A stretch of DNA of 64,000 nt from Bacteroidota bacterium (GCA_027488835.1 JAIYAW010000005.1:112518-176517), one strand, 5' to 3'; positions 1,490 through 48,206 are shown, counted from the first letter of the stretch. Notes: a model not told the origin generated them from the sequence alone. Made by a program: numbers and translations.

Positions 1490-1490
1490 G

Positions 1491-1632
1491 GAATTCAAAG
1501 GTTTATAAGGGTTTATAAAAGATTATAAGCGTTTATAAAGGTTTTTAATAGGCATTTCAATAAGTCAGAAATGGAACGTATGAAAACTCAACCTTTATAA
1601 ACTTTCATAAACGTTTATAAACCTTCTAATTA
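1491..1632. repeat. Decamer-array element, locus A: inverted pair of GTTTATRAnn arms
   Basis: + arm 1491-1545: GAATTCAAAG GTTTATAAGG GTTTATAAAA GATTATAAGC GTTTATAAAG GTTTT. - arm 1632-1590: TAATTAGAAG GTTTATAAAC GTTTATGAAA GTTTATAAAG GTT. Unique spacer of about 45 bp. Lies between two convergent genes. Confidence 0.95.
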
Positions 1633-3098
1633 CGGCGTAGCCAATTAACTATCGCCTCCAACACATCCGGTGAAATACTCTCTTGGTTATCGAAGTATTC
1701 ATTTACATTTCCAGTTTTACAATGTTGTAAAAGATGGTTGTGGTTTTCGAAAAGTTCAATTTGAACATTTCGGCCAACATTTTGAAGCTTTTTTACTACA
1801 TTTTCGCTTTGGGTATATGAAATTTGTTGGTCCAATTTTCCTTGTAAAACCAATATTGGAAGTTTCAATTGAACAAGTTCTGCCGATGGTGTTACTTTGA
1901 ACATATTAAACATCCAAGGATTGGTGAAGAGGGCCGTATATTGGGAATTTAAAACGGTTAAAAATTTATCTTTGTAGGATTTTTCAAAATAGGAAATCAC
2001 TTTTTTCTTCATTTTATCTGTTCCGTATGCAGCATTGTTTTTCCATTCGTTAAAGCAAAAACGAATGATTGATTCAGAAATTGAATCGTTTGGAATCCTA
2101 TGTTCATTAATCAATTTGGAAAGTAATAATAAGTGTAATCCCAAATAATTTTCAGAAATTAAAGAATCAACACCGCCGTTTTTAAGTGCCCAGTAATTTT
2201 GATAGGTATTGGTTTCCAACCAAGTAGCCAACATTGGTGCCAATCCAATAATACCAGCAACAGCAGGATTTTTTTTTGCAACACCAGTTGCAATACTTCC
2301 ACCTTCTGAATGTCCCACCAAGTAAATTTTACTGGTATTTACCATAGGTTGTAAAGTCAAAAATTTGAAATAGGCATCTCCGTCTTCGATTAGGTCTTCG
2401 GTAGTGTATTTTAATTTATCAGGACTTGATTTTGTGAAACCGGCTCCCCTGTCATCAACCCTTAAAACAGCATATCCAGCCTTTGTAAGGTAGTCAGAGA
2501 TAACTGCAAATGGTTTGTGATTTCCAATGCTCTCATCTCTATCTTGTGCTCCGCTTCCAGTGTATAAAATTACCGAAGGGAATTTTTGTGTTGAATCTGT
2601 TGAATTTGGGTAGGTTATGGTACCTGAAAACTTAATTTTCCCATCTTGGTTAGAGAAAGTAACTTGTTTTGTTTTATAAGCAAAAGGAGCAATGGGTGTT
2701 TGAGGTTTGGTGCTATTAATCACACCATATGATTTTACCAAAGTCAATGGAATAGATTTGCCTCTTTGTTTGAATGTACCTGTAATTTTGTTCGTGTCGG
2801 TTAACTTTCCCTCAAAATAAATACCCAATTTGCCATCTGTTAATGTCAATTTTTTCTTTTTGAAATTGGTTTCATCGAATGGATGGTTTTTTAAACGTTG
2901 CAAAGGCACATCCATTCTCGTTTGATAAATGGTCTCGTTGTCGCCAATTGATAGTGTTTTTATGTTGAAATATAAATCTAAATTGAAAGTACCCGTTTCA
3001 AGTTTACCATACCAACGGCCAAGAATATTTGTTGATTGTGCGTACGCCGTATTTGAAAGGATGTAAACAAACGCTAGAAACAGGAAGCTTTTTTTCAT
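1626..3098 (-). CDS. Secreted alpha/beta-hydrolase (peptidase S9/S15-like) with an N-terminal beta-rich domain
   Basis: TGSGAQDRDE, DDRG, GHSEG nucleophile elbow, QGKLDQQI and NHLLQ. Start placed at ATG 3098 (MKKSFLFLAF signal peptide) rather than 3182. Confidence 0.8.
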   Translation of the reverse strand: MKKSFLFLAFVYILSNTAYAQSTNILGRWYGKLETGTFNLDLYFNIKTLSIGDNETIYQTRMDVPLQRLKNHPFDETNFKKKKLTLTDGKLGIYFEGKLTDTNKITGTFKQRGKSIPLTLVKSYGVINSTKPQTPIAPFAYKTKQVTFSNQDGKIKFSGTITYPNSTDSTQKFPSVILYTGSGAQDRDESIGNHKPFAVISDYLTKAGYAVLRVDDRGAGFTKSSPDKLKYTTEDLIEDGDAYFKFLTLQPMVNTSKIYLVGHSEGGSIATGVAKKNPAVAGIIGLAPMLATWLETNTYQNYWALKNGGVDSLISENYLGLHLLLLSKLINEHRIPNDSISESIIRFCFNEWKNNAAYGTDKMKKKVISYFEKSYKDKFLTVLNSQYTALFTNPWMFNMFKVTPSAELVQLKLPILVLQGKLDQQISYTQSENVVKKLQNVGRNVQIELFENHNHLLQHCKTGNVNEYFDNQESISPDVLEAIVNWLRRN

Positions 3099-3181
3099 GC
3101 CGCAAAAATCATTGATTTTATTCAATAATAGACAGTATTTTATATGATTTATTGAAAATTGATTTTTAACTTTCTGAATCA

Positions 3182-4432
3182 TTAAAACACAATTTTCATG
3201 GTATCATTTTCGTAATGGGTTCTTTCTTCAAAAGTTTGTTTTGAAAAAGGCTTTCCATAATCGCCTTGTATTACATCTTTGGTGTGAACAAAATAGAAAA
3301 ATTGAATGCTAATGATACATTGTAACACGATTACCCAATAAACCATTTTTAAGTTTATTTTAGACAACAACAAGGTGAATAATATTTGAATCATTGGGAA
3401 CGTCACTATAAAATAATGATCTCTTACTGGAATTCCAGACATCGTAAATAAAACGAATGGTAGAAACACATATGCCAAGAATATAAATTTCGATTCTCTG
3501 TCTAACCAAACAATATTGCGAATTTCTTTTTTAACAAAAACCAAGATTAAAACGTATAAGAAAATAAGGGCTGTAATGAGCAAAGCTGCAAACATTATAT
3601 AGCTTGGAAACCCCAAAATTGGTTCTTTGAAAAATTCTTTCATGTCGTGCCCCAATGAATAAAAAATATTGATACCTACTGTGTCGGAAACAAAACGGAT
3701 TAAATATTCAAGTTTGATAATGCCCAATAAACTTGCCGACGATGTTTTGCTATTATGAAGCACATAAAAAAACCAAGGAATTGAAGGCAATATACCCAAA
3801 ATACATGTTGCAACGAATTTATAAATCCAGAATTGGGCTTTTTTAAATCCTCCGTCATACCAAATGGTTGCAAAAAACATTCCTGCGGCCAAGTAAAATC
3901 CCGACATATGCACTTGTCCGGCCAAACACAACGATAATGCCCAAATAACGACCCCCAACAGGTGTTTTCTATTCACAAATCCCCAAAAAGAAAAACAGGT
4001 GAAAAATGGCAATAAGTCTTGAGCCCATATTTTACGGCTGTAAACAATATGCAAAACATGGGTTGATGCCAAAATAATACCGAGCAATAATATATTGTTC
4101 CATTTTGGATTCCATGATTTTAGCGAATAATAAAATACAAAAATTGCTAGAATGTTTAAAAGTGAAACGCCCAAAACCATATATACAGGACCAATATTCA
4201 AATATTGCATTGCAATAAATGGCCATGTACTCACTCCTGTATTTACAATGCCACCACCACTCATTACCCCAACTTCCGGCAATATATTTCTATGCGACCA
4301 ATCGAGGCTGTGAATCCACATCCATTTTTCGTCCCACTTCCATTCCATGTCGCCTAAAAACAATAAGCGCAACACAATGGCTACCAAAATGCCGAAAACG
4401 ATGATACCTATTTGTATCTTAGTATATTTCAT
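3182..4432 (-). CDS. Polytopic membrane protein, probable GT-C (PMT/ArnT-like) glycosyltransferase
   Basis: Many hydrophobic segments, a WKWDE acidic motif after the first TM helix, and SRKIWAQD. Confidence 0.55.
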   Translation of the reverse strand: MKYTKIQIGIIVFGILVAIVLRLLFLGDMEWKWDEKWMWIHSLDWSHRNILPEVGVMSGGGIVNTGVSTWPFIAMQYLNIGPVYMVLGVSLLNILAIFVFYYSLKSWNPKWNNILLLGIILASTHVLHIVYSRKIWAQDLLPFFTCFSFWGFVNRKHLLGVVIWALSLCLAGQVHMSGFYLAAGMFFATIWYDGGFKKAQFWIYKFVATCILGILPSIPWFFYVLHNSKTSSASLLGIIKLEYLIRFVSDTVGINIFYSLGHDMKEFFKEPILGFPSYIMFAALLITALIFLYVLILVFVKKEIRNIVWLDRESKFIFLAYVFLPFVLFTMSGIPVRDHYFIVTFPMIQILFTLLLSKINLKMVYWVIVLQCIISIQFFYFVHTKDVIQGDYGKPFSKQTFEERTHYENDTMKIVF

Positions 4433-4459
4433 TTTTCAATAAGTTATTAGTTCTTAGAA

Positions 4460-5878
4460 TTAAGATAGGGTATACGTTACCCCTTGTTCAACAATTTGAA
4501 TCTCGTTAAATCCGGCATTCATTAAATGAGATTTAAAAGCCCCCAGTGTATCTTCTTCGCCATGGACCAAAAATACTTTTTTAACTAATTGGGGGTTTTG
4601 GCAGGATAAATACTCAACCATTTCTTTCCAATCTGCATGGGCGCTGAAGTTATTCATTCTATGGATTTCTGCAAAAACTTGATACTCTTCTCCAAAAATC
4701 TTCACTTGTTGCTTTCCCGAGGTTAATTGCCCCGCCAAACTAAATGGGGTAGCATAACCAATAATTAAAATGGAATTTGATGGATTTTCAATATTGTTTG
4801 CAATATGGTGTTTGATTCTGCCCGCTTCTGCCATACCGCTTGACGATATGATAATTGCAGCTGAATTGATATCATTGATTGCTTTTGAATCTTCAACTTT
4901 GCTTACATAATGCAAATTTGGAAACGAGAATGGATCGCCGTCTTTGGAAATGTATTCCAATATTTTGGGATTGAATTCATCTCTATGCAATTCCATGATT
5001 TGCGTAGCTTTAATACTCAAAGGACTATCGACATAAACAGGGATATGCGGTAGCTTTTTTTCAAAAGCCAACTGATCCAAGATATAAATAATTTCTTGGG
5101 TTCTATCTATTGAAAACGCTGGAATGATAATTTTCCCCTGCTTTTCAATACAAATTTTTTGAATCAGATTCAGTAAAGTTTCTTTTGCATCAGCCGCTGC
5201 CTCGTGCAATCGATCTCCGTAAGTGCTTTCTGAAACAATATAATCAGATTGGGGGAACGGAAATGGACCAGCCAAAATTTGATCATCGGGTCGGCCAATA
5301 TCACCGGTAAATGTAAGTGTAATGGTTTTGTTTTCAGGAGATAGTAATTTTAAATGAATCGCAGAACTTCCTATTATATGCGCATTGGGTATGAGTTTAA
5401 CAACAGTATTTGAACCAACTTGGAATTCAATATTATCTTTCACTACTTGAAATTTCGCAAGTGCTCTTTCTGCATCAGCCATTTCATATAATGCTTCAAT
5501 GGGCTCAAGGTTTTTCTCTAACCTTCTGCGGTTTACCCGCTTCAAGTCAGATTCTTGAATATGTGCGCTGTCTGCAAGCATGATTTCGCACAAATCTCTG
5601 GTAGATGAATTGCTATATATGATGCCATTAAATCCATCTTTTACCAATTTTGGCAATAATCCAGTATGGTCTATGTGTGCATGAGAAAGTATCACAAAAT
5701 TGACATCGGCAGGATTAAATCCCCAATTTCTATTCAATTTTTGACCTTCTTTTCCCTCTCCTTGGAACAATCCACAATCCAATAAAATGTTTTCACCATT
5801 GGAAGTAGTGATCAAATGTTTAGAACCGGTTACTCTGCCAGCTGCGCCGTAACTTGTGAGGGTAGGGGAATTTTGCAT
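4460..5878 (-). CDS. MBL-fold beta-CASP RNA-processing nuclease (YSH1-like)
   Basis: GAAGRVTGSKH, LLDCGLFQG, SHAHIDHTG, ESTYGDR and FSAHAD. Start placed at ATG 5878, just after a TAnnTTTG box. Confidence 0.9.
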   Translation of the reverse strand: MQNSPTLTSYGAAGRVTGSKHLITTSNGENILLDCGLFQGEGKEGQKLNRNWGFNPADVNFVILSHAHIDHTGLLPKLVKDGFNGIIYSNSSTRDLCEIMLADSAHIQESDLKRVNRRRLEKNLEPIEALYEMADAERALAKFQVVKDNIEFQVGSNTVVKLIPNAHIIGSSAIHLKLLSPENKTITLTFTGDIGRPDDQILAGPFPFPQSDYIVSESTYGDRLHEAAADAKETLLNLIQKICIEKQGKIIIPAFSIDRTQEIIYILDQLAFEKKLPHIPVYVDSPLSIKATQIMELHRDEFNPKILEYISKDGDPFSFPNLHYVSKVEDSKAINDINSAAIIISSSGMAEAGRIKHHIANNIENPSNSILIIGYATPFSLAGQLTSGKQQVKIFGEEYQVFAEIHRMNNFSAHADWKEMVEYLSCQNPQLVKKVFLVHGEEDTLGAFKSHLMNAGFNEIQIVEQGVTYTLS

Positions 5879-5968
5879 TATTACAAAAATACTGAGATTC
5901 AACTCAAAAGCAATAAACTATTAATTGCAGAAATCGCAAAACGTTTAAAACGGTTAAATTGAAAAGTA

Positions 5969-6817
5969 TTATTTATTAAGCAGCACAACTGAATCTAAAA
6001 ACGCTGTGCATTTTTTATAAGCAGTTAGCGAAATATGGTCGCCATCTGGCAGAAAGTCAGTTTTGTTTGAAAGGAAATGCGACATGTCTATTACCTCGAG
6101 ATCGTGGGTATTTTGGACATAAACTTGCTTGTAATTTTGAGGGATATTTTCGAAATAGCTTTCATAAACAGGTGTATTTATAATTATCAATCGAATGTTG
6201 TTATCTCTGCAATAATATTTAATGACATTTAAATATTGGATTTGCTCCTTACTAAACGGTTGAAAGTTTCCATTTTTCTTATAAAATTGTTGCTTGATTC
6301 TTTTTTGTGACTTTTTGATACTTACTTGACTTTTAAATGGGTAGCTAAAATGTCCCTCAATAAAATTATTTCTACTAGTAAGTGATTTCCAAGCAAGTTT
6401 AAATTGCTTTTTAAATAAGAAATGCAAATTCAAAAAGCGATATTCATTGAGCATTTGCATTGGTTTAGGGGTGATTACAAAATAACGAGGCAAAATTTCC
6501 ATTTCATTGGTTAGGTATTCGTTAAAATAACCACTAAATGAATGATGAGAAAGACCTAAATAAATGGTTTTGAGTTTTTTATTTTTGTTTAATGCCAATA
6601 TTTTGTAATAAGTGTATTTAAGTCCTTCCGAATTACAACCCAAATTATTTGCGTTTTTATATAAGTATTCAATTCTTGAATCACCTAAAAAAACAGTTTT
6701 ATAGGTATATTTAAATGGGTGTTTTTGGTGATATTTGAAAATCGCAACAAACGAAAGTGTAACGATTACCAATACAATTAAAATGTATTTGATGAATTTT
6801 CTGAGAAAACGATTCAA
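5969..6817 (-). CDS. Membrane-anchored SGNH-like protein, probable partner of the adjacent MBOAT
   Basis: N-terminal TM anchor, FLGDSR block and C-terminal DGDH motif; lies just downstream of an MBOAT gene. Confidence 0.6.
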   Translation of the reverse strand: MNRFLRKFIKYILIVLVIVTLSFVAIFKYHQKHPFKYTYKTVFLGDSRIEYLYKNANNLGCNSEGLKYTYYKILALNKNKKLKTIYLGLSHHSFSGYFNEYLTNEMEILPRYFVITPKPMQMLNEYRFLNLHFLFKKQFKLAWKSLTSRNNFIEGHFSYPFKSQVSIKKSQKRIKQQFYKKNGNFQPFSKEQIQYLNVIKYYCRDNNIRLIIINTPVYESYFENIPQNYKQVYVQNTHDLEVIDMSHFLSNKTDFLPDGDHISLTAYKKCTAFLDSVVLLNK

Positions 6818-6829
6818 GGGAATTGAGAA

Positions 6830-8293: not shown

Positions 8294-8297
8294 AACG

Positions 8298-8305
8298 CAA
8301 ATATA
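8298..8305 (-). promoter_or_regulatory. Bacteroidota -7 promoter box, 4 nt before the MBOAT GTG start
   Basis: Minus strand reads TATATTTG-CGTT-GTG. Confidence 0.6.
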
Positions 8306-8324
8306 TCAAAAAGCCAGACTACAT

Positions 8325-9320: not shown

Positions 9321-9342
9321 AATCCAAAATTCGAATTAAATC

Positions 9343-9371
9343 AAAAAAGTCATCATTTCTGATGACTTTTT
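9343..9371 (-). terminator. Intrinsic terminator downstream of tRNA-Met
   Basis: Stem-loop AAAAAGTCATCA-TTTC-TGATGACTTTTT with T-runs on both strands. Confidence 0.8.
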
Positions 9372-9380
9372 GATTTTGAG

Positions 9381-9454
9381 TAGCGAAAGGGGGAATTGAA
9401 CCCCCGACCTCAGGGTTATGAATCCTGCGCTCTAACCACCTGAGCTACCTCGCT
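9381..9454 (-). tRNA. tRNA-Met (CAT), probably elongator; CCA not encoded
   Basis: Reverse complement reads AGCGAGGTAGCTCAGGTGGTTAGAGCGCAGGATTCATAACCCTGAGGTCGGGGGTTCAATTCCCCCTTTCGCTA. Acceptor stem, D-arm, CAT anticodon and GTTCAA T-loop are present. The 1-72 pair is formed and the initiator GGG/CCC anticodon-stem run is absent. Confidence 0.95.
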
Positions 9455-9465
9455 AATTAGGGATG

Positions 9466-9473
9466 CAAAGATA
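9466..9473 (-). promoter_or_regulatory. -7 promoter box for tRNA-Met
   Basis: TATCTTTG on the minus strand, 11 nt upstream of the tRNA 5' end. Confidence 0.7.
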
Positions 9474-9526
9474 ATTATTTTCTACATTTTTTCCAAATGA
9501 TTTTTTATAAAAAAAGGAGCGTTAAA

Positions 9527-10597: not shown

Positions 10598-10658
10598 ACT
10601 GCGAAAATAGTTTTTTTAATAAAATTACACACTATCCGTAACGTTTTAGGCATATTAT

Positions 10659-14339: not shown

Positions 14340-14386
14340 AACTTATTATACTTGCTTAACTAAACAAAATTAAGAAATATTAAAAT

Positions 14387-15163: not shown

Positions 15164-15176
15164 TAAAAATTTTATT

Positions 15177-27494: not shown

Positions 27495-28076
27495 TTAATC
27501 ATTCGCCACATTGAAAACAATAAATTCTGCGTTTTCCGGTGTAATATTATTTTTATCTAACTGCTGAGATATTGCTACTTCTAATGCTCTTTCTCCTTTT
27601 TCTTTAAATAAGAAAAAACAATACCATTTAAAATAGAAGAAATCAAATGCTTTGGTGAGTTTGTATTCTGTAATTTGTAAAGCTTTTGAAAATTTCTTGG
27701 GATATTGATGCATTTCTACGCGAATAGAGGGTAGCATGTCGAAAGACTCTGGAAATACCTGTGGGTATTTTTTTTCCATTAAGCGCATTGCAAAGAGCAT
27801 CACATCAATTGAATCAATGGCCTCGGTATAGTTGATTAAATTACCTAATCCAAAGCTAGGTAGCTTGTTGATACGCGAATACAATGCATATGCGCAAAGC
27901 TTTTTGATTGAATCATTTGTCGGATTTCGATTATAAACTTTCGCAATTTCCTCGCAATAGCGAATCATTGGATCTGTAGGCTGTTTTCTTTTGGTATTGA
28001 TCTTTTGCCCAAATAAATTGCCTCCACCTATGAATACGGAAAGAATGATTAAAAAGTAACCCTTATAAACTCTCAT
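27495..28076 (-). CDS. Hypothetical exported protein whose start codon lies inside decamer array B
   Basis: 193-aa ORF filling the gap between neighbours. Signal-peptide-like N-terminus MRVYKGYFLIILSVFIGGGNLFG-Q; no family recognised. Confidence 0.6.
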   Translation of the reverse strand: MRVYKGYFLIILSVFIGGGNLFGQKINTKRKQPTDPMIRYCEEIAKVYNRNPTNDSIKKLCAYALYSRINKLPSFGLGNLINYTEAIDSIDVMLFAMRLMEKKYPQVFPESFDMLPSIRVEMHQYPKKFSKALQITEYKLTKAFDFFYFKWYCFFLFKEKGERALEVAISQQLDKNNITPENAEFIVFNVAND

Positions 28077-28130
28077 AAACTTTTATAAACACTTATAAAC
28101 CTTCATAAACTGTTATAAACCCTATAATTC
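28058..28130 (-). repeat. Decamer-array element, locus B: single arm with six units
   Basis: Minus strand reads GAATTATAGG GTTTATAACA GTTTATGAAG GTTTATAAGT GTTTATAAAA GTTTATGAGA GTTTATAAGG GTT. It starts 2 nt after the TGA at 28135-28133. Confidence 0.95.
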
Positions 28131-28132
28131 CC

Positions 28133-28852
28133 TCAATAATAGTATTCCTCATTCTTTTTGATATTTCCTAAATTAAAATAATAGGCAACACCAATTTGAA
28201 GATTTCCGCCTCTGAAATTCAAGGGAAAGGCTTTGCTGTAAAATTCGCCCGTTTGTACTTGTAATTCGTGAGAAGTTCTCAATGATTGTTGGTAGGTGAT
28301 GTTGAATTCGTATCTGTCGCCACGTTCATTGCTTCCCCCCATTACAAATCCTAAATAAATCATGGGATACCATTTGTTTGTTTCTGTTTGGATAATTCTG
28401 AATGCAGGCTTTGTAGTTGCATTGTAAAAAGTATCGCGCACAGTTGAAGGACTTTGATTATAATTGATAATCCCCCCAATTTTTTCCATAATGTACATCG
28501 AACCACCGAATCGTTGCTTGAATGACAATCCAAAATTTGCGTTTAACGCGGTAATACTGCTGTTTACAGAATTGTCTAAGGAAAGAGTGTCGTTGTTGAT
28601 CTTATATCCCTTGTTGATGATGCCAACGCCAAAATGAAGGGATGTAACTCTGTTCATTTCATAATATCCACCAAGGTTAAAAGCTGCACCCCAACGATTT
28701 CGGGTAGTGAAATTATTGGCTAAGGTATCGGCAGTGGCTGTTTTTGCAGCACAAGTTGCGGCACTTAATCCCAAGTACCACTTGCTTTGGGCGTTAGCAT
28801 TTGAAAATAAACAAAGACTTGTTACAAAAAAAAGAATGAATTTGTTTCGCAT
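28133..28852 (-). CDS. Outer-membrane beta-barrel protein (PorT/OMP_b-brl_2-like)
   Basis: Signal peptide MRNKFILFFVTSLCLFSNANA-Q from ATG 28852, amphipathic beta-strands, and GVAYYF near the C-terminus. Confidence 0.65.
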   Translation of the reverse strand: MRNKFILFFVTSLCLFSNANAQSKWYLGLSAATCAAKTATADTLANNFTTRNRWGAAFNLGGYYEMNRVTSLHFGVGIINKGYKINNDTLSLDNSVNSSITALNANFGLSFKQRFGGSMYIMEKIGGIINYNQSPSTVRDTFYNATTKPAFRIIQTETNKWYPMIYLGFVMGGSNERGDRYEFNITYQQSLRTSHELQVQTGEFYSKAFPLNFRGGNLQIGVAYYFNLGNIKKNEEYYY

Positions 28853-28936
28853 TATATACAAAATTACGACGAAATAGTACATTTTGTTACATTCATAAAA
28901 AATGGCATCAGAAAATAGCCGTATTTTTGCACTATA

Positions 28937-29950
28937 ATGAGTTTTCAATTAGAAGCATTGTTGGCATTAAGACAATCAATCGTGAATTATAAAACCGATG
29001 AAAGTTGGCAGTCAAAATTATATACAGCACAGATTAATAATCAGTGGTTCGAACTAAAACAAACAGAAAAGAGTATTCAGAGTTGGTTAGATGCATTGTC
29101 AGATGAGAATATCGCCCAATGGTTGGCTAAATATTCCTTCCCTCTTGAAATTCATAACAAAAGAATGGGTGTTATTATGGCCGGTAATATTCCTTTGGTA
29201 GGAATGCATGACCTTATTGTTGGCGTTCTTACAGGTTATACAGTAGTTGCGAAATGTTCTTCAGACGATGAGTTTTTGCCAAAGTTTTGGATTTCTGAAG
29301 CAGCCAAAATAAATCCAATTTGGGGCAATCAAATTGAATTTTCAGATCAATTCAAAAATGTAGATGCAGCAATTGCAACTGGAAGTAACAATTCTTCTCG
29401 GTATTTTGAATACTATTTTAGAAATATCCCTCATATTCTGAGAAAAAACAGAAATAGTATTGCTGTAATAACCGGTACTGAAACTGAAGATGAATTAGTT
29501 GCATTTGGGAATGATGTGTTTGATTATTTCGGACTTGGATGTCGCAATGTGACCAAAGTTTATTTGCCAGAAGGATATGAATTTAAAACGCTTTTTGATG
29601 TGTGGGAAAAATCACATGCCGATGTTGCTTTTCATAACAAATATGTAAATAATTACAATTATCACAAAGCATTGTTGTTGATGAATTTGGATCCACATAT
29701 TGATGCTGGTTACGTTTTGATGAAAGAAAGAAAAGAATTGTATTCGCCCGTTGGAATGGTCAATTACGAATACTATTCAAACATCAACGAGTTGAAAGCT
29801 GTTTTTGCAGAAATATCTGAGAACATTCAATGCATTGTAAGTGAAAATACTGAAATCACCCATTTGCGTTTAGGTCAAACACAGTGCCCAACATTGTGGG
29901 ATTATGCAGATGGTGTTGACACCATGCAATGGGCTATTGAATCAATTTGA
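28937..29950 (+). CDS. Acyl-CoA reductase (LuxC-like), Bacteroidota type
   Basis: IMAGNIPLVGMHD, ATGSNNSSRYFEYYF, YFGLGCRNV and DYADGVDT. Confidence 0.88.
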   Translation: MSFQLEALLALRQSIVNYKTDESWQSKLYTAQINNQWFELKQTEKSIQSWLDALSDENIAQWLAKYSFPLEIHNKRMGVIMAGNIPLVGMHDLIVGVLTGYTVVAKCSSDDEFLPKFWISEAAKINPIWGNQIEFSDQFKNVDAAIATGSNNSSRYFEYYFRNIPHILRKNRNSIAVITGTETEDELVAFGNDVFDYFGLGCRNVTKVYLPEGYEFKTLFDVWEKSHADVAFHNKYVNNYNYHKALLLMNLDPHIDAGYVLMKERKELYSPVGMVNYEYYSNINELKAVFAEISENIQCIVSENTEITHLRLGQTQCPTLWDYADGVDTMQWAIESI

Positions 29951-38683: not shown

Positions 38684-38684
38684 T

Positions 38685-40325: not shown

Positions 40326-40332
40326 GAATTGT

Positions 40333-41097: not shown

Positions 41098-41120
41098 GTT
41101 ATACTTATATTGTTTATTAT

Positions 41121-42155: not shown

Positions 42156-42592
42156 TGGAAGATTTAAAAGCTTATTTAGACGAAAGATTAGAAGAAAATC
42201 ATTTTATCCAATTCGTTGGGTTAAAACTATCGCACATAGAGGTTGGTTATGCCGAAATGACATTGGAAATTAAAAAGCACCATTTGCAACAAAATGGCTT
42301 TATGAATGGAGGTGTTACTGCTACCATTCTAGATGTAGTTACCGGAATTGGCGCATATACCACCGTGGTAAAAGGTAAAAATGTAGTTACCGCCGATTTG
42401 AAAGTGAGTTACCTCAATCCCTCAACTGCCAAAAACATTTTGGCCACGGGCAGGGTGAAAAAATCGGGCAATTTTTTGGTATTTTGCGAAGGTGAAGTCT
42501 ATGACATTTTTGAAGATGGTTCACGAAAATTGGTGGCTACTTGTAGCTCAATTATGTGTGCTGTTGATATTCCAATTGTAAAAGTTGATTGA
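42155..42592 (+). CDS. PaaI family (hot-dog) thioesterase
   Basis: QQNGFMNGG..ATILD and VTADLKVSYLNP. Confidence 0.88.
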   Translation: MEDLKAYLDERLEENHFIQFVGLKLSHIEVGYAEMTLEIKKHHLQQNGFMNGGVTATILDVVTGIGAYTTVVKGKNVVTADLKVSYLNPSTAKNILATGRVKKSGNFLVFCEGEVYDIFEDGSRKLVATCSSIMCAVDIPIVKVD

Positions 42593-43329
42593 TGAAATAC
42601 CGCGAAATTTTATATTCAAATTACCATACCACACAAAGTGGACGGGCCAGCGGCGTTGATGCCATCGCTTTGTTTAACCGCGAAAAATGGCGATTTTCTA
42701 TCGAAATATTGCCTTTGGTAAACACATTTCCGAAAACATCGAAAATTTATGATTTCGGCTGTGGCAGTGGAAGTCTTTTGGCGGTTTTGAAGGACAATGG
42801 ATTCACCAATTTGCTGGGTATGGATCTGAGTTCAGAACAAGTAAAATTGGCACATGAATTGGGCGTTGATTGTGTGAAAGAACAAGATGCGTTGAATTAT
42901 TTAAAAGATTCATCTGAAAAATACGATTTAATATTTGGAATGGACATCATTGAGCATTTCACCAAAAATGAATTGGTGGAGTTATTGTCCCTCATAAAAA
43001 ATAAACTGAATCCAGGCGGGAAGGCTATTTTCAGGACTCCGAATTTAGACGCTCCATTAACAACGGTTTTTGCCAATGGCGATTTCACCCACGAAAACTA
43101 TATGAATGCTTCGTCGGCACAGCAAGTTTGCATGGCTTGTGGATTTAATGCGGTTCAAGTGGTGGAAAGCAGTGTGAAAATTCAAAACCCGTTGAAAGAA
43201 TTGATCCGTAAATTCATTTGGTTTGGGTTAAAACAAAAATTAAAAACAACCTTATTTGCAACGGGGAGAAGTACACAAAATGTAATTTTTACGCCAAATA
43301 TGATCATCGTTGCAGATGCATTAAAATAA
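42589..43329 (+). CDS. Class I SAM-dependent methyltransferase
   Basis: DFGCGSG, GMDLS, DIIEH, L.PGG..IFRTPN and DFTHE. Confidence 0.88.
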   Translation: MMKYREILYSNYHTTQSGRASGVDAIALFNREKWRFSIEILPLVNTFPKTSKIYDFGCGSGSLLAVLKDNGFTNLLGMDLSSEQVKLAHELGVDCVKEQDALNYLKDSSEKYDLIFGMDIIEHFTKNELVELLSLIKNKLNPGGKAIFRTPNLDAPLTTVFANGDFTHENYMNASSAQQVCMACGFNAVQVVESSVKIQNPLKELIRKFIWFGLKQKLKTTLFATGRSTQNVIFTPNMIIVADALK

Positions 43330-43334
43330 ATTGA

Positions 43335-44084
43335 ATGAGTAAAATAGCATTAATAACTGGGGGTACCAGTGGAATAGGATTGGCAACTGCAAAGTTGTTA
43401 TTGGAAAACGGTTACAAAGTAATTGTAACGGGAAGAAGGGCAGAGCGTTTGTTGAAGTTTCAAGAGGAAATGGGTACAGATAAAGTGTACACTTTGTGTT
43501 TTGATGTGAGAAATGACCAAGAAGTGAATTTCGCATTGAATTCATTGCCTTCTGCTTGGAAAAATATTGATGTTTTGGTAAATAATGCAGGATTGGCTTG
43601 GGGTTTGGGACAATTTTTCAATGGAAATACAACCCATTGGGATACCATGATCGACACCAACATCAAAGGATTACTTTACGTTTCGAAAGTGATAGCCAAT
43701 TGGATGAAAGATAAAAAAAGCGGTCATATTGTAAATATTGGGTCAATTGCTGGCAAAGATGTATATATGAATGGCAATGTTTATTGTGCTACAAAACATG
43801 CCGTAGATGCTTTAACTAGGGCAATGCGTATTGAGTTGGCAGAATATAAAGTAAAAGTTACAGGCATTCATCCTGGAGCCGTAGAAACCGAATTTAGCGA
43901 AGTGCGTTTTGATGGCGATAAAGACAGGGCAAAAAAGGTTTATGAGGGATTTGAAAACCTCATTGCCGATGACATTGCCGACGCAGTATTTTACGCAGTT
44001 TCAAGGCCAGCCCACGTAAACATTAACGACTTAGTAATTATGCCAACGGCCCAACCTGCGGCAGGTGTGATATATAGGGATTAG
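43335..44084 (+). CDS. NADP-dependent SDR oxidoreductase (YdfG-like)
   Basis: TGGTSGIG, NNAGLA.G, YCATK, PGAVETEFSEVRF and RPAHVNI. Confidence 0.9.
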   Translation: MSKIALITGGTSGIGLATAKLLLENGYKVIVTGRRAERLLKFQEEMGTDKVYTLCFDVRNDQEVNFALNSLPSAWKNIDVLVNNAGLAWGLGQFFNGNTTHWDTMIDTNIKGLLYVSKVIANWMKDKKSGHIVNIGSIAGKDVYMNGNVYCATKHAVDALTRAMRIELAEYKVKVTGIHPGAVETEFSEVRFDGDKDRAKKVYEGFENLIADDIADAVFYAVSRPAHVNINDLVIMPTAQPAAGVIYRD

Positions 44085-44196
44085 AAGGTTTATAAGAGTT
44101 TAGGGAGTTTATTAGCGTTTATGAAGGTTGATTTTGTTTTATTTAACCCTTATAAACTTTCATAAACCTTTATAAACCCTCATAAACTCTCTAATT
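44078..44196. repeat. Decamer-array element, locus C: long inverted repeat
   Basis: + arm: GGATTAGAAG GTTTATAAGA GTTTAGGGA GTTTATTAGC GTTTATGAAG GTT. - arm 44196-44145: AAATTAGAGA GTTTATGAGG GTTTATAAAG GTTTATGAAA GTTTATAAGG GT. Spacer about 15 nt. Confidence 0.95.
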
Positions 44197-44208
44197 TGAA
44201 ACAAAAGT

Positions 44209-44535
44209 ATGAGCAACAAAAACAAAAACAAATCGGGGATTGTTTATAGTACAAATCCGGATTATCAGTATGACGCTGACAACGAGGAGCAAGATACCTT
44301 GGAGCCCTCGCAGCAGAAGTTATATGCAAGGAGAGAAGTTCGCAATGGCAAACCTTGTATTGTGATTAAAGAGTTTGTTGGCAAATCTGACGATTTAAAA
44401 CAGTTAGAAAAAAGCCTAAAAAACCATTGTGGCGTGGGTGGTACCAGCAAAGATGGCGACATCATTATTCAAGGAGATACCTTGGAAAAGGTGAAGGCGT
44501 TTTTGGCTACTAAGGGGTATCGCACCAAAGGTTAA
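44209..44535 (+). CDS. yciH: Translation initiation factor SUI1/eIF1-like protein
   Basis: GIVYSTNPD and LK..CGVGGTSKDGDIIIQGD. Confidence 0.9.
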   Translation: MSNKNKNKSGIVYSTNPDYQYDADNEEQDTLEPSQQKLYARREVRNGKPCIVIKEFVGKSDDLKQLEKSLKNHCGVGGTSKDGDIIIQGDTLEKVKAFLATKGYRTKG

Positions 44536-44706
44536 TTAGAAGGTTTATAAGAGTTTATAAAGGTTTAGTTTGACAGGGTGCTAAAATTAAACCACGAATC
44601 GTAAACAGGCGTAGAGGTAATTTGAAGGTTTATAAAAGTTTATGAAGGTTTATAAGGGTTTATAAAAATTGACTGGTTGCCAAAATTAAATAGCGAAGCG
44701 TAAACA
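44533..44706 (+). repeat. Decamer-array element, locus D: two tandem arm+tail units
   Basis: Unit 1 (44533-44607): TAATTAGAAG, 2 decamers, tail TTGACAGGGTGCTAAAATTAAACCACGAATCGTAAACA. Unit 2 (44618-44706): TAATTTGAAG, 4 decamers, tail TTGACTGGTTGCCAAAATTAAATAGCGAAGCGTAAACA. Confidence 0.95.
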
Positions 44707-44709
44707 AAA

Positions 44710-45375
44710 ATGAGGATGTTAAAAAACGTATTTATATTTATCATTTCAATCGGTTTTTTATCTTGCGGGAGTAAGAATTCCTCCTTGGTAGAAAGCACAA
44801 ACAAAAAAAACATGGAAAATTCAAATCAAATTGATCCAACGAAAGTAGACACTTGCGTGTTGGGTGGCGGTTGCTTTTGGTGTCTAGATGCCGTTTACAG
44901 ACGTTTGCCAGGCGTATTGAATGTTGTGAGTGGTTACAGCAACGGTAAAGTTGCCAATCCTACCTATCGTGAAGTGTGCTCAGGATACACCGGTTGTGTG
45001 GAAGTAGTAAAAATCATGTTCGATACCACCAAAACTTCGTATGCAGAAATACTCACTGTTTTTTGGCGTATTCACAATCCTACAACGTTAAACAAACAAG
45101 GCAACGACGAAGGAACCCAATACCGAAGTGGAATTTATTATCGCAATGAAGAACAAAAGACCACAGCTATTTATAGTTTAAAAGCTGCAGAAGATGCCAA
45201 ACTTTGGGACGGTAAAATTGTAACAGAAATTCTTCCAGTAGAAAAATATTCCGACGCCGAAGACTATCACCAAAACTATTTTGAAATCAATCCTGACCAA
45301 CCTTACTGCATTTATGTAGTTGGAGAAAAGGTTAAGAAGTTTGAGGAGTTTATGAAGAAATTCAAAGGTTTATAA
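44710..45375 (+). CDS. msrA: Peptide-methionine (S)-S-oxide reductase with lipoprotein signal
   Basis: GGGCFWC, GTQYRSGIY and AEDYHQNY; N-terminal lipobox GFLSC. Confidence 0.95.
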   Translation: MRMLKNVFIFIISIGFLSCGSKNSSLVESTNKKNMENSNQIDPTKVDTCVLGGGCFWCLDAVYRRLPGVLNVVSGYSNGKVANPTYREVCSGYTGCVEVVKIMFDTTKTSYAEILTVFWRIHNPTTLNKQGNDEGTQYRSGIYYRNEEQKTTAIYSLKAAEDAKLWDGKIVTEILPVEKYSDAEDYHQNYFEINPDQPYCIYVVGEKVKKFEEFMKKFKGL

Positions 45376-45561
45376 GCGTTTATAAAAGTTTATAAGGGTT
45401 TATAAAGGTTCAATGAGAAATAAAAATAAGTTATCAAATCTAGTTCAACCTTTGTTTATTCCAATAAACTAAATCTAAAGCTCATAAACCTTCATAAACC
45501 CTTATAAACTTTCTAATTACTAAAATTAAACCTTCATAAACCCTTATAAACCCTCTAATTC
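45358..45561. repeat. Decamer-array element, locus E: one + arm and two tandem - arms
   Basis: + arm 45358-45410: AAATTCAAAG GTTTATAAGC GTTTATAAAA GTTTATAAGG GTTTATAAAG GTT. - arm 45561-45527: GAATTAGAGG GTTTATAAGG GTTTATGAAG GTTTA. - arm 45519-45480: TAATTAGAAA GTTTATAAGG GTTTATGAAG GTTTATGAGC. Confidence 0.95.
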
Positions 45562-46311
45562 CTAAAGCCTGTGCAATTGGGTGTTGAAAATTGAGATTCC
45601 AGTGCCAATTAATAACCCGGTGAGTACGTCGGAAGGGTAGTGTTTTCCTGCTGAAATTCTGAGGGTGGCGGTGGCTAACGATGCTACGCCCGCGCCGTAA
45701 GCCAAATATTTAACCGTGTTGGTTTGGTTGTTTCTCAAAGCATACATCAACGCTGTGGTTGCTGCGGCTGCTGTTATTGCGCTATGTCCACTAAAAAATG
45801 AATAATTATCGTCTTTTTTGCCCGTAAATTGATATCCCGAAGCGTTGGTGTATGGTCTGCTTCGTTGAACCAATATTTTAACCAATTGCACGGTGTTTCC
45901 CGTTATCCAAAGGTTTTGAGTGAAGTTATTGATATACCCCCAACGTTCATTTTGAGGAAGAGCTAAGGTTAGTGCAGAACTCAGTAGCATGGTAGCACCT
46001 GCAGTAGCATCTGACAAATGGACCATGTTGGATTTCAATTGATTCACTGCAAGTTTGTCTATTGGATTTACCGTCCAGTGGTGTGGGGTAGCGTTTAACT
46101 TATTTGTAAGCCAAATTTCAGTGGCACTCATCGTAATCAAACTGCCATACAAAATCTTGTCATAAGTGGGTTTTACAGCGTAATTTTGGGACTTAAGGTT
46201 ATTGTCCCCCAAAAAAATAATGCACAAAAGCAATAGTGTCAGTTTTACACTTATGTAATTGCGACATTCGGTTAAGTATTTGCTTATGATTGTATTATAT
46301 GTATTTGACAT
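45562..46311 (-). CDS. PAP2 family phosphatase
   Basis: K..VQRSRPY, SFFSGHSA and LRISAGKHYPSDV. Start position uncertain. Confidence 0.88.
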   Translation of the reverse strand: MSNTYNTIISKYLTECRNYISVKLTLLLLCIIFLGDNNLKSQNYAVKPTYDKILYGSLITMSATEIWLTNKLNATPHHWTVNPIDKLAVNQLKSNMVHLSDATAGATMLLSSALTLALPQNERWGYINNFTQNLWITGNTVQLVKILVQRSRPYTNASGYQFTGKKDDNYSFFSGHSAITAAAATTALMYALRNNQTNTVKYLAYGAGVASLATATLRISAGKHYPSDVLTGLLIGTGISIFNTQLHRL

Positions 46312-46404
46312 GTTTCGATGGTCTTTAAAATGTATGTGTTTTGTGTGCGTAAATCCGTTTACTAAAAAAAAGATAAAAATTAACCAATGCGATTAACGTT
46401 TTGG

Positions 46405-46412
46405 TAACTTTG
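46405..46412 (+). promoter_or_regulatory. -7 promoter box for pckA
   Basis: TAACTTTG, 27 nt upstream of ATG 46440. Confidence 0.6.
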
Positions 46413-46439
46413 CAGTACAAATTTACGAAAATAAACTGT

Positions 46440-48029
46440 ATGAGTAATGAGGCATTGATTGCGAACATAAAATCGCATGCAAAGCAAGTTTTTGAAAACT
46501 TAACCACCGATGAGCTTATCGAGAAAGCTCTCGAGAGAAATGAAGGTCAAATCACAGATAAAGGCGCCTTGGCTGCCGATACGGGTGAATTTACTGGAAG
46601 AAGTCCGAAAGACAAATTCTTGGTAAAAGATGCAAAAACTGCCGACACCGCATGGTGGGGTACTGTTAATCAACCCTTTGAATCTGAAAAATTCGATGCG
46701 TTGTTGAACAGGGTAGTAGCGCATTTAGAAGGAAGAGAAATCTTTGTTCGTCATGCATACGCTTGTGCCGATCCAGCTTATCGTTTAAATATTCAAGTAG
46801 TTACTGAGAGTGCGTACCAAAATTTGTTCGCTAAGAACTTATTTTTACGTCCTACTGCAACTGAAATCGCTACCCAACCTTCTGATTGGGTAATTATTGC
46901 TGCACCATCATTCATGGCTGATCCAGCAATTGATGGAACCCGCCAGCACAACTTTACCATTGTAGATTTAACCAAGAAAATCATCTTAATTGGTGGTAGT
47001 GGTTACACTGGTGAAATTAAGAAAGGTATCTTTAGTGTGTTGAATTACATCCTTCCACAAGAAAAAGGTGTATTGAGCATGCACTGTTCTGCGAATATCG
47101 GTAAGGACAATGACACTGCTGTATTCTTCGGATTGAGCGGTACCGGTAAAACTACGTTGAGTGCTGATCCTAATCGTAAGTTAATCGGTGACGATGAACA
47201 CGGTTGGTCAGATTCTACCGTATTCAATTTCGAAGGTGGTTGTTATGCAAAATGCGTAAACTTAACTGAAGAAAAAGAACCTCAAATTTGGAATGCAATT
47301 AAGCCTGGTGCTTTGGTTGAAAACGTTCGTTTCTTTGAGGGAACCAATACGCCTGATTACGATAACATTTCTGTTACCGAAAACACCCGTGTTGCTTACC
47401 CAATTGACTACATCGACAATATTGCAGAACCTTCAATTGGTGATGCACCTAAAAATATTTTCTTCCTAACTGCGGACGCATTTGGGGTATTGCCTCCAAT
47501 TTCTAAATTGACATCTGGCCAAGCCATGTATCAATTTATTTCAGGTTACACTGCAAAAGTGGCAGGTACTGAAGCGGGAGTTACTGAACCACAAGCTACT
47601 TTCTCTGCATGTTTTGGACAAGTTTTCTTGCCATTACATCCTGCGAAATATGCACAGATGTTGGGTGAAAAACTTTCTGCAAATCCAGATATCAACGTAT
47701 GGTTAATCAACACAGGTTGGTCTGGTGGTGCTTACGGAGTAGGCAGCAGAATGAAATTGTCTTACACCCGTGCCATGATTACTGCGGCTTTGGAGGGACA
47801 ATTGGATGGGTCATTCACCAATCACCCTGTGTTTGGTTTTGCAATGCCTGATGCTTGTCCTAACGTTCCTTCAGAATTGTTACATCCAAGAAATACTTGG
47901 GCTGACGGTTCTGCATACGATGCACAGTGTCAGAAGTTGGCAAAATTGTTCAACGACAATTTCCAAAAATTTGCCGATGGATCTAGCGACGAAATCAAGG
48001 CCGCTGCTCCTAAAATGGCCACTGCTTAA
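46440..48029 (+). CDS. pckA: Phosphoenolpyruvate carboxykinase (ATP)
   Basis: TGRSPKDK, GEIKK, MHCSAN, GLSGTGKTTLS, IGDDEHGW and FEGGCYAK. Start placed at ATG 46440. Confidence 0.97.
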   Translation: MSNEALIANIKSHAKQVFENLTTDELIEKALERNEGQITDKGALAADTGEFTGRSPKDKFLVKDAKTADTAWWGTVNQPFESEKFDALLNRVVAHLEGREIFVRHAYACADPAYRLNIQVVTESAYQNLFAKNLFLRPTATEIATQPSDWVIIAAPSFMADPAIDGTRQHNFTIVDLTKKIILIGGSGYTGEIKKGIFSVLNYILPQEKGVLSMHCSANIGKDNDTAVFFGLSGTGKTTLSADPNRKLIGDDEHGWSDSTVFNFEGGCYAKCVNLTEEKEPQIWNAIKPGALVENVRFFEGTNTPDYDNISVTENTRVAYPIDYIDNIAEPSIGDAPKNIFFLTADAFGVLPPISKLTSGQAMYQFISGYTAKVAGTEAGVTEPQATFSACFGQVFLPLHPAKYAQMLGEKLSANPDINVWLINTGWSGGAYGVGSRMKLSYTRAMITAALEGQLDGSFTNHPVFGFAMPDACPNVPSELLHPRNTWADGSAYDAQCQKLAKLFNDNFQKFADGSSDEIKAAAPKMATA

Positions 48030-48058
48030 ACAACAACAATAACAAAAATAACAAAATT

Positions 48059-48081
48059 GGACGCTCTAGGGCGTCCTTTTT
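48059..48081 (+). terminator. Intrinsic terminator of pckA
   Basis: GGACGCT-CTAG-GGCGTCC followed by TTTTT. Confidence 0.85.
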
Positions 48082-48088
48082 GTTTAGG

Positions 48089-48206
48089 GCACTTCGTGCG
48101 TTTAGAAGAGCTTCGCTTGTTTACGTTTTGCTGGTTAATTTTTGCACTCAGCCAACCTTTATAAACGCTCATAAACTTTTATAAACTCTTATAAACTTTC
48201 TAATTA
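48089..48206 (-). repeat. Decamer-array element, locus F: arm, 38-bp tail and GAA mini-hairpins
   Basis: Minus strand reads TAATTAGAAA GTTTATAAGA GTTTATAAAA GTTTATGAGC GTTTATAAAG G, then TTGGCTGAGTGCAAAAATTAACCAGCAAAACGTAAACA, then A-GCGAAGC and GCACGAAGTGC. Confidence 0.95.

Follow-up and report, generated by a model that had tools for sequence, protein, structure and literature searches.

Decamer arrays in the window and in the genome

The 64-kb stretch of DNA analysed here, referred to below as the window, corresponds to C3:112518-176517 of the Bacteroidota assembly GCA_027488835.1 (G000; 2.49 Mb in 9 contigs, 35-36% G+C, 99.4% complete), and carries at six loci, all of them between genes, short arrays of a 10-bp unit, GTTTATRARN, each array being headed by an anchor sequence. 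When the units were required to lie in exact 10-bp phase with at most one mismatch per 8-mer, ten arrays were found in the window, which together with one degenerate arm give 11 arms and 41 units; an original prediction, made from the sequence alone, had counted 11 arms at six loci and about 40 units. The sequence GTTTATRANNGTTTATRA, with at most one mismatch allowed, has 28 matches in the window, while in 100 dinucleotide-preserving shuffles the mean is 0.07 and the maximum 1, and Tandem Repeats Finder (TRF) reports period-10 rows at all six loci.

The same array criterion applied to the whole of G000 yields 81 arrays, which comprise 265 units and are spread over 50 intergenic regions, whereas three genomes simulated with an order-3 Markov model contain none, a result which confirms that the predicted dispersed family of decamer repeats is real and not a product of chance. 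The arrays are dispersed short tandem direct repeats of 2-8 copies, the majority with two (21 arrays), three (29) or four (26) units, and the longer ones comprising one array of five, two of six, and one each of seven and eight units. They are clustered regionally, with 19 arrays located within 12 kb of C1, and in some regions whole modules are repeated in tandem. In the intergenic DNA of G000 TRF gives 74 period-10 rows of the decamer type, the remaining short-period rows including a few of a 9-bp TTAGAC type and of an 18-20-bp hairpin type. Moreover, GTTTATAA is the 8-mer with the highest intergenic enrichment in the genome (17x), ahead of TATCTTTG (11-fold), which we take to be the Bacteroidetes -7 promoter box.

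A search of the 64-kb window against Rfam at gathering score gave a single match, a tRNA at 9381-9454, and none at the arrays, and text searches for unit strings and repeat descriptions, made in the main texts of a limited set of articles, returned no description of the decamer family. The original prediction had recognised no named family in these repeats, and the family is apparently new to the literature.

Structure of the module and conservation of the unit

The module consists of an anchor, (G)GAATTnnARG, followed by 2-8 copies of GTTTATRARN and by an inner end, GTT(T/G)AG. The profile of the anchor over the 81 arrays is, from position -9 to -1, A57 A54 T60 T57 (A40/C17) N A66 (A49/G30) G63, and the sequence following the last unit reads RG-GTT-(T/G)-AG, with G69 T70 T74 at positions +3 to +5. 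The polarity of the arms, their AATTAGARR-like anchor and their partial GTT at the end, all noticed initially in the window, are thus features of the family across the genome.

The unit itself was defined with 71 decamers whose sole criterion of choice was that an exact unit lies in phase on either side. These decamers agree with the consensus in 96-100% of cases at positions 1, 3, 4, 5, 6, and 8, while position 2 is T in 79% and A in 20%, position 7 is A in 68% and G in 31%, position 9 is a purine in 70 of the 71, and position 10 is any base. Since the decamers were picked by phase alone, the unit GTTTATRARN is not an artefact of the search, and the nearly invariant 8-mer with two varying last bases, as originally described, survives this unbiased test. 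Of 184 pairs of neighbouring units only 5 share their variable bases, while random pairing would give 9.2% (binomial P 4.6e-4), and the exact repetition of whole units that marks slippage is not seen in the G000 arrays, both in keeping with the view that the arrays are not products of recent slippage. In arrays orthologous between G000 and its relatives G042 or G021 the core positions differ in 7 of 101 cases and the linker or variable positions in 15 of 65 (Fisher P 0.004), with 57 of 236 differences at other intergenic positions. The 8-mer is therefore conserved both among copies and among orthologues while the linkers drift, a pattern which supports the near-invariance of the 8-mer originally noted.

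It is worth mentioning that the 10-mer arrays contain stop codons in all frames. This was considered as a selected property and rejected, as it fails for the 9-mer family described below, whose period is a multiple of three.

Position and orientation relative to genes

All 81 arrays are intergenic, the overlap with the end of an open reading frame (ORF) being at most 14 bp. Twenty-nine of them start no more than 20 nt after the stop codon of a co-oriented gene. Of the 34 stop-proximal cases listed, 16 have their stop within the anchor or first unit and another 12 have it just ahead of the anchor. In 28 of the 81 arrays it is a gene start that lies on the anchor side; only two arrays come within 20 nt of a gene start, and the inner (GTTTAG) end is found within 20 nt of a gene once. 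The original placement of the arrays at gene 3' ends consequently holds for their intergenic location and for the stop-proximal group, and does not hold for those arrays that turn their anchor to a gene start. Convergent regions are enriched in arrays: 16 of 331 carry them, compared with 31 of 1811 other regions (tandem, 25 of 1482; divergent, 6 of 329; Fisher P 0.0015).

The orientation rule is stronger than the anchoring at stop codons. Adjacent arrays within one region are arranged ++ in 11 cases, -- in 11, +- in 9, and -+ in none, so that the nine inverted pairs are all outward and none is inward, the outer ends always being directed towards the flanking genes. Likewise, in each of the 33 regions containing at least two GTTTA and two TAAAC pentamers, the GTTTA copies are on the left-hand side. 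Because the anchor is met first from either flanking gene, followed by GTTTA-type units pointing inward, the architecture is that of a foldback element.

The genes at the sides of the arrays are ordinary housekeeping genes: pdxA, yciH/SUI1, msrA, pckA, alaS, pheS, prfA, and rpoN, and further rbfA, pth, purQ, aroQ, rpsF-rpsR-rplI, yidD, rnpA, and panB. The arrays are found where insertions are tolerated and not at one class of genes. The arms of the window and the features associated with them are collected in Table 1.

Table 1. Repeat arms and associated features in the window (positions counted from its first nucleotide) and sites of the palindrome module in G000 (contig positions)
Position	Strand	First unit	Units	Description
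1490-1550	+	1501	5	Arm; anchor GGAATTCAAAG (1490-1500) and 5 decamers (1501-1550), directly after the pdxA TGA (1487-1489)
1593-1633	-	1595	3	Inverted partner of 1490-1550; 3 decamers (1595-1622) and outer anchor containing the TAG stop (1626-1628) of a convergent alpha/beta-hydrolase gene; the pair folds with z -5.05
28058-28132	-	28063	6	Solo arm; outer anchor and 6 decamers (28063-28120), after the stop of ORF 28133-28948 (-); fold z -0.85, not significant
44077-44131	+		4	Foldback left arm; anchor GGGATTAGAAG containing the TAG stop of an SDR gene (44082-44084), 4 units, among them one 9-mer GTTTAGGGA and one GTTTATTA, and GTTGA; degenerate units span 44088-44126+
44148-44199	-	44150	4	Foldback right arm; 4 decamers (44150-44187) and outer anchor; yciH/SUI1 start 21 nt on; pair with 44077-44131 folds at -34.8 kcal/mol, z -4.75, and is bridged by an RNA contig
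44533-44568	+	44543	2	Module; anchor TAATTAGAAG enclosing the yciH TAA stop, 2 decamers, GTTTAG
44616-44667	+	44628	4	Second tandem module; anchor GGTAATTTGAAG and 4 decamers, then a core common to a sister genome
45358-45410	+	45368	4	Left arm of a ~160-bp composite element; anchor AAATTCAAAG and 4 decamers; msrA TAA stop (45373-45375) in the first unit
45480-45521	-	45482	3	Right arm of the ~160-bp composite element; 3 decamers (45482-45509) and outer anchor; z -5.55
45527-45561	-	45534	2	Further module; 2 decamers (45534-45551) and outer anchor adjoining the PAP2 TAG stop (45562-45564)
48059-48086	+			Canonical intrinsic terminator of pckA; 7-bp GC-rich stem and T-run; site of repeat insertion
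48083-48125	+			Left arm of a mixed element; two mini-hairpins spaced by GTTTAG, with a GNA triloop on the minus strand; starts within the T-run of the pckA terminator
48154-48208	-	48159	4	Right arm of the mixed element; 4 decamers (48159-48196) and outer anchor; 38 nt before the alaS start, just upstream of the alaS TATCTTTG box
C1:130825-131205, C1:135275-135475, C3:23096-23217, C6:135444-135855, others				Palindrome module, CCCGAAAGCTTTCGGG

Distribution and unit types

Exact trimers of the 10-mer and of a 9-mer, GRTTAGACN, were counted in 27 genomes of the genus. The 10-mer trimers are present in G000 (54), G016 (69), G011 (30), G007 (27), G042 (13), G021 (11), G019 (6), and G015 (2), and absent from 18 further genomes and from G041; the 9-mer trimers number 161 in G021, 83 in G019, 40 in G042, and 4 in G000, and none were found in the other 23 genomes. 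Arrays are therefore missing from 19 of the 27 genomes. The eight genomes that carry them are those closest to G000 by the identity of YciH and alaS, and the family is accordingly restricted to a clade within the genus.

The unit type differs between sister species at the same sites. The regions rpoN-rbfA, ECH-purQ, purQ-aroQ, msrA-PAP2, and yciH-msrA hold 10-mers in G000 and 9-mers in G021 or G042, the 9-mer arrays having the layout of the 10-mer ones and the flanking DNA of G000 being about 90% identical to that of G021 and G042. In G015, 8-bp GATTATAA units are found in regions that hold 10-mers in G000. All unit types have the core G-W-T-T-A-K-A in common, and the 9-mer amounts in essence to an amplified anchor unit (GATTAGARN). 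In shared regions the period is thus 10 bp in G000 and 8 bp in G015, while it is 9 bp in the three genomes G021, G042, and G019. Given that sister species carry 9-mer arrays at the same sites, a spacing of one helical turn is not essential, and the emphasis that the original prediction placed on it finds no support; helical phasing as a selected property is weakened by both the 9-bp and the 8-bp families. Further unit types at shared sites are a 7-bp GTTTACA, present three times in the SDR-yciH region of G016, and the 8-bp GATTATAA/GATTATAG of G015.

Beyond the genus, a scan of prokaryotic genomes, one per species, gave at least 112 stretches. The matches listed come mostly from metagenome-assembled genomes (MAGs) labelled Saprospiraceae, Lewinella(ceae), Flavobacteriales, Schleiferiaceae, or 'Bacteroidetes', with a few odd labels among them (Thermoanaerobaculia, Rhizobium, and two cyanobacteria) for which the binning may be off. 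The arrays among these listed matches are longer, reaching 22 units, and more uniform (GTTTATGAGG). They frequently terminate in GGGTTTAGAGGG, inverted pairs separated by a very short loop are common, and a crude ORF map places 89 of 100 between genes. Those of the Saprospiraceae MAGs are homogeneous, unlike the arrays of G000. No array was found in 16 genomes of a neighbouring family. A phage vector was also considered and set aside: the 17 stretches returned by a scan of viral contigs are mostly homogeneous AT-rich minisatellites with neither anchor nor linker variation, several of them in giant-virus bins, and were not counted as members of the decamer family.

Insertion sites

As the relatives have retained the order of these housekeeping genes, a site-by-site comparison between genomes is possible. 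The inspection of orthologous regions proposed alongside the original prediction did reveal empty sites. In the pckA-alaS region of at least eight genus members without arrays, the T-run of the terminator is fused to the -7 box of alaS. In G015 and G007 the same T-run contains a 30-bp mini-foldback, comprising one forward and two reverse units and flanked by T5 on the left and T6 on the right, while G000, G042, G016, and G011 have there 130-210 bp of repeats, and G021 has 7.7 kb of extra genes. In distant genus members only a few bases, and no repeats, separate the genes along SDR-yciH-msrA. The length of msrA is constant across the genus, and in the array clade its last 1-3 codons and the stop are supplied by the element. 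The median length of array-bearing regions in G000 is 201 bp, versus 44 bp for all regions. Since the ancestral gaps were tiny, viable insertions were limited to stop codons and terminator T-runs, and the anchoring at stop codons is explained by insertion into these formerly tiny gaps.

The divergent promoter region PAP2-pckA (46312-46400) served as a control, being 89 bp long and repeat-free in five of five genomes. The half next to pckA is well conserved, that next to PAP2 has strongly diverged, and the region provides a yardstick for unconstrained intergenic divergence.

Homologous copies and accompanying modules

Four elements of about 160 bp with an arm-core-arm structure can be aligned from end to end, the mean column identity being 74%. 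Three of them are located in G000, in the msrA-PAP2, ECH-purQ, and purQ-aroQ regions, and the fourth at a non-orthologous site in G042, comB-ECH. The columns of the 8-mer are invariant or A/G at position 7, while the linkers and the core of about 65 bp have diverged. No multicopy repeat longer than 200 bp with identity above about 92% was found in G000.

The same regions contain small hairpins with a C-GNA-G triloop, of which there are 29 intergenic copies in G000, compared with 1-5 for three control loops. The triloop is GAA in 18, GCA in 5, GTA in 4, and GGA in 2 of them, and the stems are 3-6 bp long and of varied sequence. T[AC]AAC, which reads GTTTAG/GTTGAC on the opposite strand, follows the mini-hairpins and spaces them at about 18-20 bp, and arrays of as many as about ten of them occur in G042. 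A separate dispersed module is the 16-bp palindrome CCCGAAAGCTTTCGGG flanked by GATTAGAC-type units, whose copies, 86-91% alike, are distributed over six contigs of G000 in eight or more intergenic regions.

Folding and transcription

As RNA, the paired arms are predicted to fold with -33.5 to -36.1 kcal/mol (z -4.75 to -5.76), none of 200 shuffles being as good, whereas three solo or mixed stretches give z of +0.08 to -0.85 and thus no significant fold. The linker bases of the paired arms do not match. Pairing within a hairpin was rejected as the sole constraint on the arrays, considering the unfolded solo arms, the mismatched linkers of the paired ones, and the 33:0 polarity which it leaves unexplained.

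A terminator scan for a GC-rich stem of at least 5 pairs followed by a T-run detected in the 43000-49000 part of the window only the terminator of pckA. The paired arms form long AU-rich stems, some of them followed by T-runs, and do not qualify as intrinsic terminators; in tandem regions a T-run follows the right arms. In two regions the array lies between the stop codon and a canonical terminator, while at pckA-alaS and two other sites the repeats begin after the terminator. Metatranscriptome contigs from related strains cover the genes, span two of the arrays, and extend from yciH into arrays of the 9-mer, which weakly suggests that the arrays are transcribed; being contigs, they show neither the ends nor the strand of a transcript, nothing can be concluded from stretches left uncovered, and they may also contain DNA.

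Candidate mobilising and binding proteins

A partner of the RAYT type (TnpA-Y1) had been suggested as something to look for, and it finds no support: a search for Y1_Tnp at E<=0.01 gave no match in G000, with profile matches in 6 of 14 control genomes, and within the genus the domain is present in three of 27 genomes (G010, G017, and G041), none of which has arrays, and in none of the eight array-bearing ones. The rve domain is found in five of the eight array-bearing genomes and nine of the 19 others, and DDE_Tnp_1 in three of the 27, so that the occurrence of neither shows a link with the arrays, and both were rejected as genus-wide partners. G000 encodes only three tyrosine recombinases, none near the arrays. 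No autonomous element with the same ends was found in searches that covered Y1, rve, DDE_Tnp_1, and TnpB and not such families as IS630, IS1595, IS110, and ISL3. The AAA_14/DUF4143 ATPases encoded in two array-rich inserts of G021 were likewise rejected, as such proteins are present in 20 of the 27 genomes regardless of arrays; the two copies in these inserts are only 33% identical. RNA-binding proteins of the PUF and RRM_1 families are absent from G000.

Origin of the arrays

The reading that we favour, with about even confidence, is that the arrays constitute a foldback mosaic repeat family similar to miniature inverted-repeat transposable elements (MITEs), non-coding, settled at those gene boundaries where insertion is tolerated, and subsequently grown and homogenised in each genome separately. 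Such a family would have entered the ancestor of the array clade and colonised its intergenic gaps. Each arm is polar, its outer end, (G)GAATTnnARG, representing a diverged unit related to the 9-mer GATTAGARN. Arms occur solo, in tandem, or in inverted pairs that enclose a short core. The insertions that survived are those at stop codons or terminator T-runs, some of them supplying the last codons and the stop of the adjacent gene. Elements in place would then grow by the addition of units and modules and by exchange with other copies, and it is in this way that each genome may have acquired the dominant unit type which now distinguishes it. The constancy of the 8-mer could result either from gene conversion in unit register among about 265 near-identical units or from a sequence-specific factor that moves or maintains the elements. 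As a by-product, the paired arms would provide long AU-rich hairpins at gene ends otherwise devoid of terminators. Terminal inverted repeats do bound a short non-coding element, as in a MITE, and the REP/MITE-like character initially suggested stands as regards the outward ends, inverted arms, empty sites, and dispersed copies, and falls as regards RAYT.

Several observations weigh against the foldback family so understood. Solo arms do not fold, and 14 of 47 regions are one-sided, with no partner array. G000 contains no Y1_Tnp, rve, DDE_Tnp_1, TnpB Zn-ribbon, or RVT_1 domain, and none of ten transposase or integrase loci examined in the genus has arrays within 1.5 kb. No general target-site duplication is apparent: the only hint of one is the T5/T6 flanks at pckA-alaS, and no common flank was seen at the other sites. 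The arrays show no replication-strand bias (37 versus 44), and a signature of single-strand transposition was rejected on this ground. The same regions are occupied in several species (in G021, 9 of 12 compared regions of the C1 cluster), which fits old retained elements better than ongoing hopping. Finally, the pattern of conservation is unlike that of inert fossils and could equally mean selection for a function in the host.

Such a function could reside in RNA, the arrays being transcribed as part of 3' UTRs and, in some cases, of 5' leaders, with the paired arms acting as terminators or exonuclease blocks at gene ends and the solo arms as a GUUUAURA platform for an RNA-binding protein or nuclease. 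This is conceivable, though doubtful. It would account for the 29 arrays placed shortly after a co-oriented stop, the enrichment of convergent regions, the folding of paired arms (z -4.75 to -5.76), the two regions with an array between stop and terminator, the single canonical terminator in 43000-49000, the T-runs after right arms in tandem regions, and the metatranscriptome contigs bridging arrays; moreover, positions 7 and 9 tolerate transitions only, which would preserve G-U pairs. It agrees poorly with the repeats that begin after the terminator at pckA-alaS and two more sites, with the 28 arrays facing gene starts, and with the solo arrays of tandem regions, of which seven are co-oriented and nine anti-oriented; the solo arms are unstructured, the linkers of paired arms mismatched, PUF and RRM proteins lacking, and 19 of the 27 genomes do without arrays, while the RNA contigs may contain DNA and lack transcript ends. 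Binding at the level of DNA, by an oligomeric or cooperative protein (nucleoid-associated, insulator, or roadblock) that would recognise one GTTTATRA per helical turn, is an unlikely explanation. The exact 10-bp phase, the constant 8-mer with its free 2-bp linker, the conservation of the core between orthologues and copies, the under-representation of identical neighbours (5/184), and the recurrence of the same 8-mer in distant Bacteroidota are what such a protein would leave behind, but the periods of 9 and 8 bp at the same sites show that helical phasing is not conserved, a switch of units between genomes about 90% identical would demand rapid co-evolution of the protein, no candidate for it emerged, the arrays are missing from most of the genus (19 of 27), and their sites are those where insertions are tolerated and not a class of genes. 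Equally unlikely would be a new sequence-specific factor, protein or RNA-templated, that reads G-W-T-T-A-K-A and writes or maintains the arrays without any transposase, as punctuation of gene ends (insulator or terminator). Such a factor would be widespread in Bacteroidota (Saprospiraceae, Lewinellaceae, some Flavobacteriales), and changes in its specificity would explain the genome-wide switches of the unit.

Mobilisation by a dedicated transposase was weighed in two forms. An ordinary MITE, the arrays being non-autonomous copies of a DDE or other transposon, with a transposase binding the subterminal decamers and supplied in trans from a copy that is lost, unassembled, or of a family not searched, appears improbable: the inverted arms with outward ends, the dispersed copies of about 160 bp, the empty sites with T-run flanks, the family bursts that differ between sister genomes, and the 19 arrays in 12 kb of C1 speak for it, and against it stand the absence of rve, DDE_Tnp_1, TnpB, and Y1 from G000, the lack of arrays beside any transposase locus examined, the fact that the copies are not near-identical as they would be after a burst, and the variable unit number with growth in place, unusual for a MITE. 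A REP/REPIN-type element mobilised by RAYT (a Y1 HUH transposase) is contradicted for the array clade and very improbable. Its attraction lies in the extragenic, high-copy, clustered mosaics that the repeats form and in the small GC-rich GNA-triloop hairpins, spaced by T[AC]AAC, which share regions with them (29 versus 1-5 for controls). Y1_Tnp, however, is confined to three genomes, none array-bearing, no replication-strand bias exists, and the decamers are non-palindromic direct repeats, of which only the variant GTTTATAAAC is self-complementary; the GTAG/CGTC-type feet of REP sequences, whose absence had been pointed out at the beginning, are indeed not present in the decamer units.

Relation to known repeats

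The closest architecture, by analogy, would be that of the eukaryotic foldback transposons (Drosophila FB, Galileo, and Tetris), which have internally repetitive terminal inverted repeats. Like the decamer elements, they possess inverted arms of tandem short units, variable in length, around a centre that is short, absent, or cargo-bearing, and they are a source of satellite-like arrays. They differ in being eukaryotic, with known or inferred P or MULE transposases, and the arms of the decamer elements are far shorter (20-80 bp). We know of no bacterial precedent for foldback transposons with such arms. REP, BIME, and REPIN elements, for which effects on terminators and mRNA stability have been proposed, are, similarly to the decamer arrays, extragenic high-copy mosaics at gene ends with hairpin modules nearby; the units of REP and REPIN are imperfect palindromes of 20-40 bp, and the RAYT gene typically has such repeats at its sides, whereas the decamers have no palindrome, no GTAG/CGTC foot, and no RAYT in the genomes that bear them. 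The BOX elements of Streptococcus pneumoniae are intergenic and modular, A-(B)n-C, with a variable number of the middle module, which, however, is about 45 bp long (10 bp in the decamer arrays), and they belong to another phylum and show no sequence likeness. Arrays of the iteron or centromere type (plasmid parC, the heptads of the omega repressor) occupy one or a few sites beside their own par or rep genes. They share with the decamers fixed-period short units, direct or inward-facing, outward-facing pairs being disfavoured; the decamers, unlike them, occupy 50 chromosomal sites without such genes, and their period is not conserved between sisters.

Among dispersed short repeats, the cyanobacterial STRR heptamers are related in kind. 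The closest case in print is the set of TAACTGA heptamer direct repeats of marine Beggiatoaceae, Cyanobacteria, and a few Bacteroidetes (MacGregor 2015, PMC4679880). Both the heptamers and the decamers form dispersed head-to-tail sets of 2-6 copies, sometimes tens, which are almost all intergenic, oriented with respect to genes, and patchy across phyla, suggesting horizontal spread, and both overlap only the last codons of genes because they contain stops in all frames (PMC4679880). The decamer differs from the exact 7-mer in consisting of a fixed 8-mer and a free linker, and its arrays have an outer anchor and an inner end, inverted arms, and a unit that switches between sister species. The decamer arrays lie mostly at stops, the TAACTGA repeats just upstream of starts (PMC4679880).

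Few families of short dispersed repeats have been described outside Proteobacteria and Cyanobacteria, and such repeats are among the least understood DNA of bacteria. The arms of decamers with a fixed 8-mer and a free linker, the strict outward foldback rule, insertion exactly at the stops and T-runs of a compact genome without the transposases searched for (Y1, rve, DDE_Tnp_1, and TnpB), and the genome-wide switching of the unit are traits that bacterial repeats do not usually combine. If the arrays are selfish DNA, they would be a bacterial counterpart of the eukaryotic foldback elements and a clean system for the study of concerted evolution; if they are functional, they would point to a new gene-boundary mechanism in Bacteroidota, whose promoters, translation starts, and RNA-binding proteins differ from the textbook ones. 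In practical terms, the arrays alter the predicted C-termini of housekeeping proteins and break metagenome assemblies, several matches being located at contig ends.

Accessory genes between arrays

In G021, within C1:54000-73999 and C12:31000-39400, array-bearing intergenic regions have acquired accessory genes. They encode a RES-Xre toxin-antitoxin pair, a nucleotidyltransferase, a Fic/DOC protein, and the two AAA_14/DUF4143 ATPases, and several further ORFs match no Pfam family. These genes are set apart, one from the next, by inward-facing pairs of 9-mer arrays, and the arrays may serve as landing pads or recombination sites for small cassettes. A smaller case is found in G000 at L009:10069-10275 (C1:135068-135274), where a lone ORF of 68 aa encoding a DUF433 protein (E 9.8e-20) is bracketed by arrays between pth and a gene for a B12-binding-domain protein, its stop lying at the anchor of the next array.

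Other features of the window and of the assembly

The six-unit solo arm is flanked by two minus-strand ORFs, 27495-28076 (193 aa) and 28133-28948 (271 aa), and Pfam gives nothing for either of them at E<=0.001. In the former the array overlaps the predicted start, so the true start is probably located further in. The 3' untranslated region of pckA contains ahead of the terminator, at 48030-48058, an A/C-only run of AAC/AAT repeats (TRF rows 48028-48056), which is retained in G042, G015, G016, and G007.

The repeat-rich ends C3:1-412 and C2:319250-319688 of G000 overlap in reverse orientation over 177 bp at 97%; contigs C2 and C3 are probably adjacent, the assembly having been broken at the repeats. 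The very start of contig C1 (C1:1-621) is occupied by a tandem repeat with a 33-bp period, the copies of which are about 91-92% alike.

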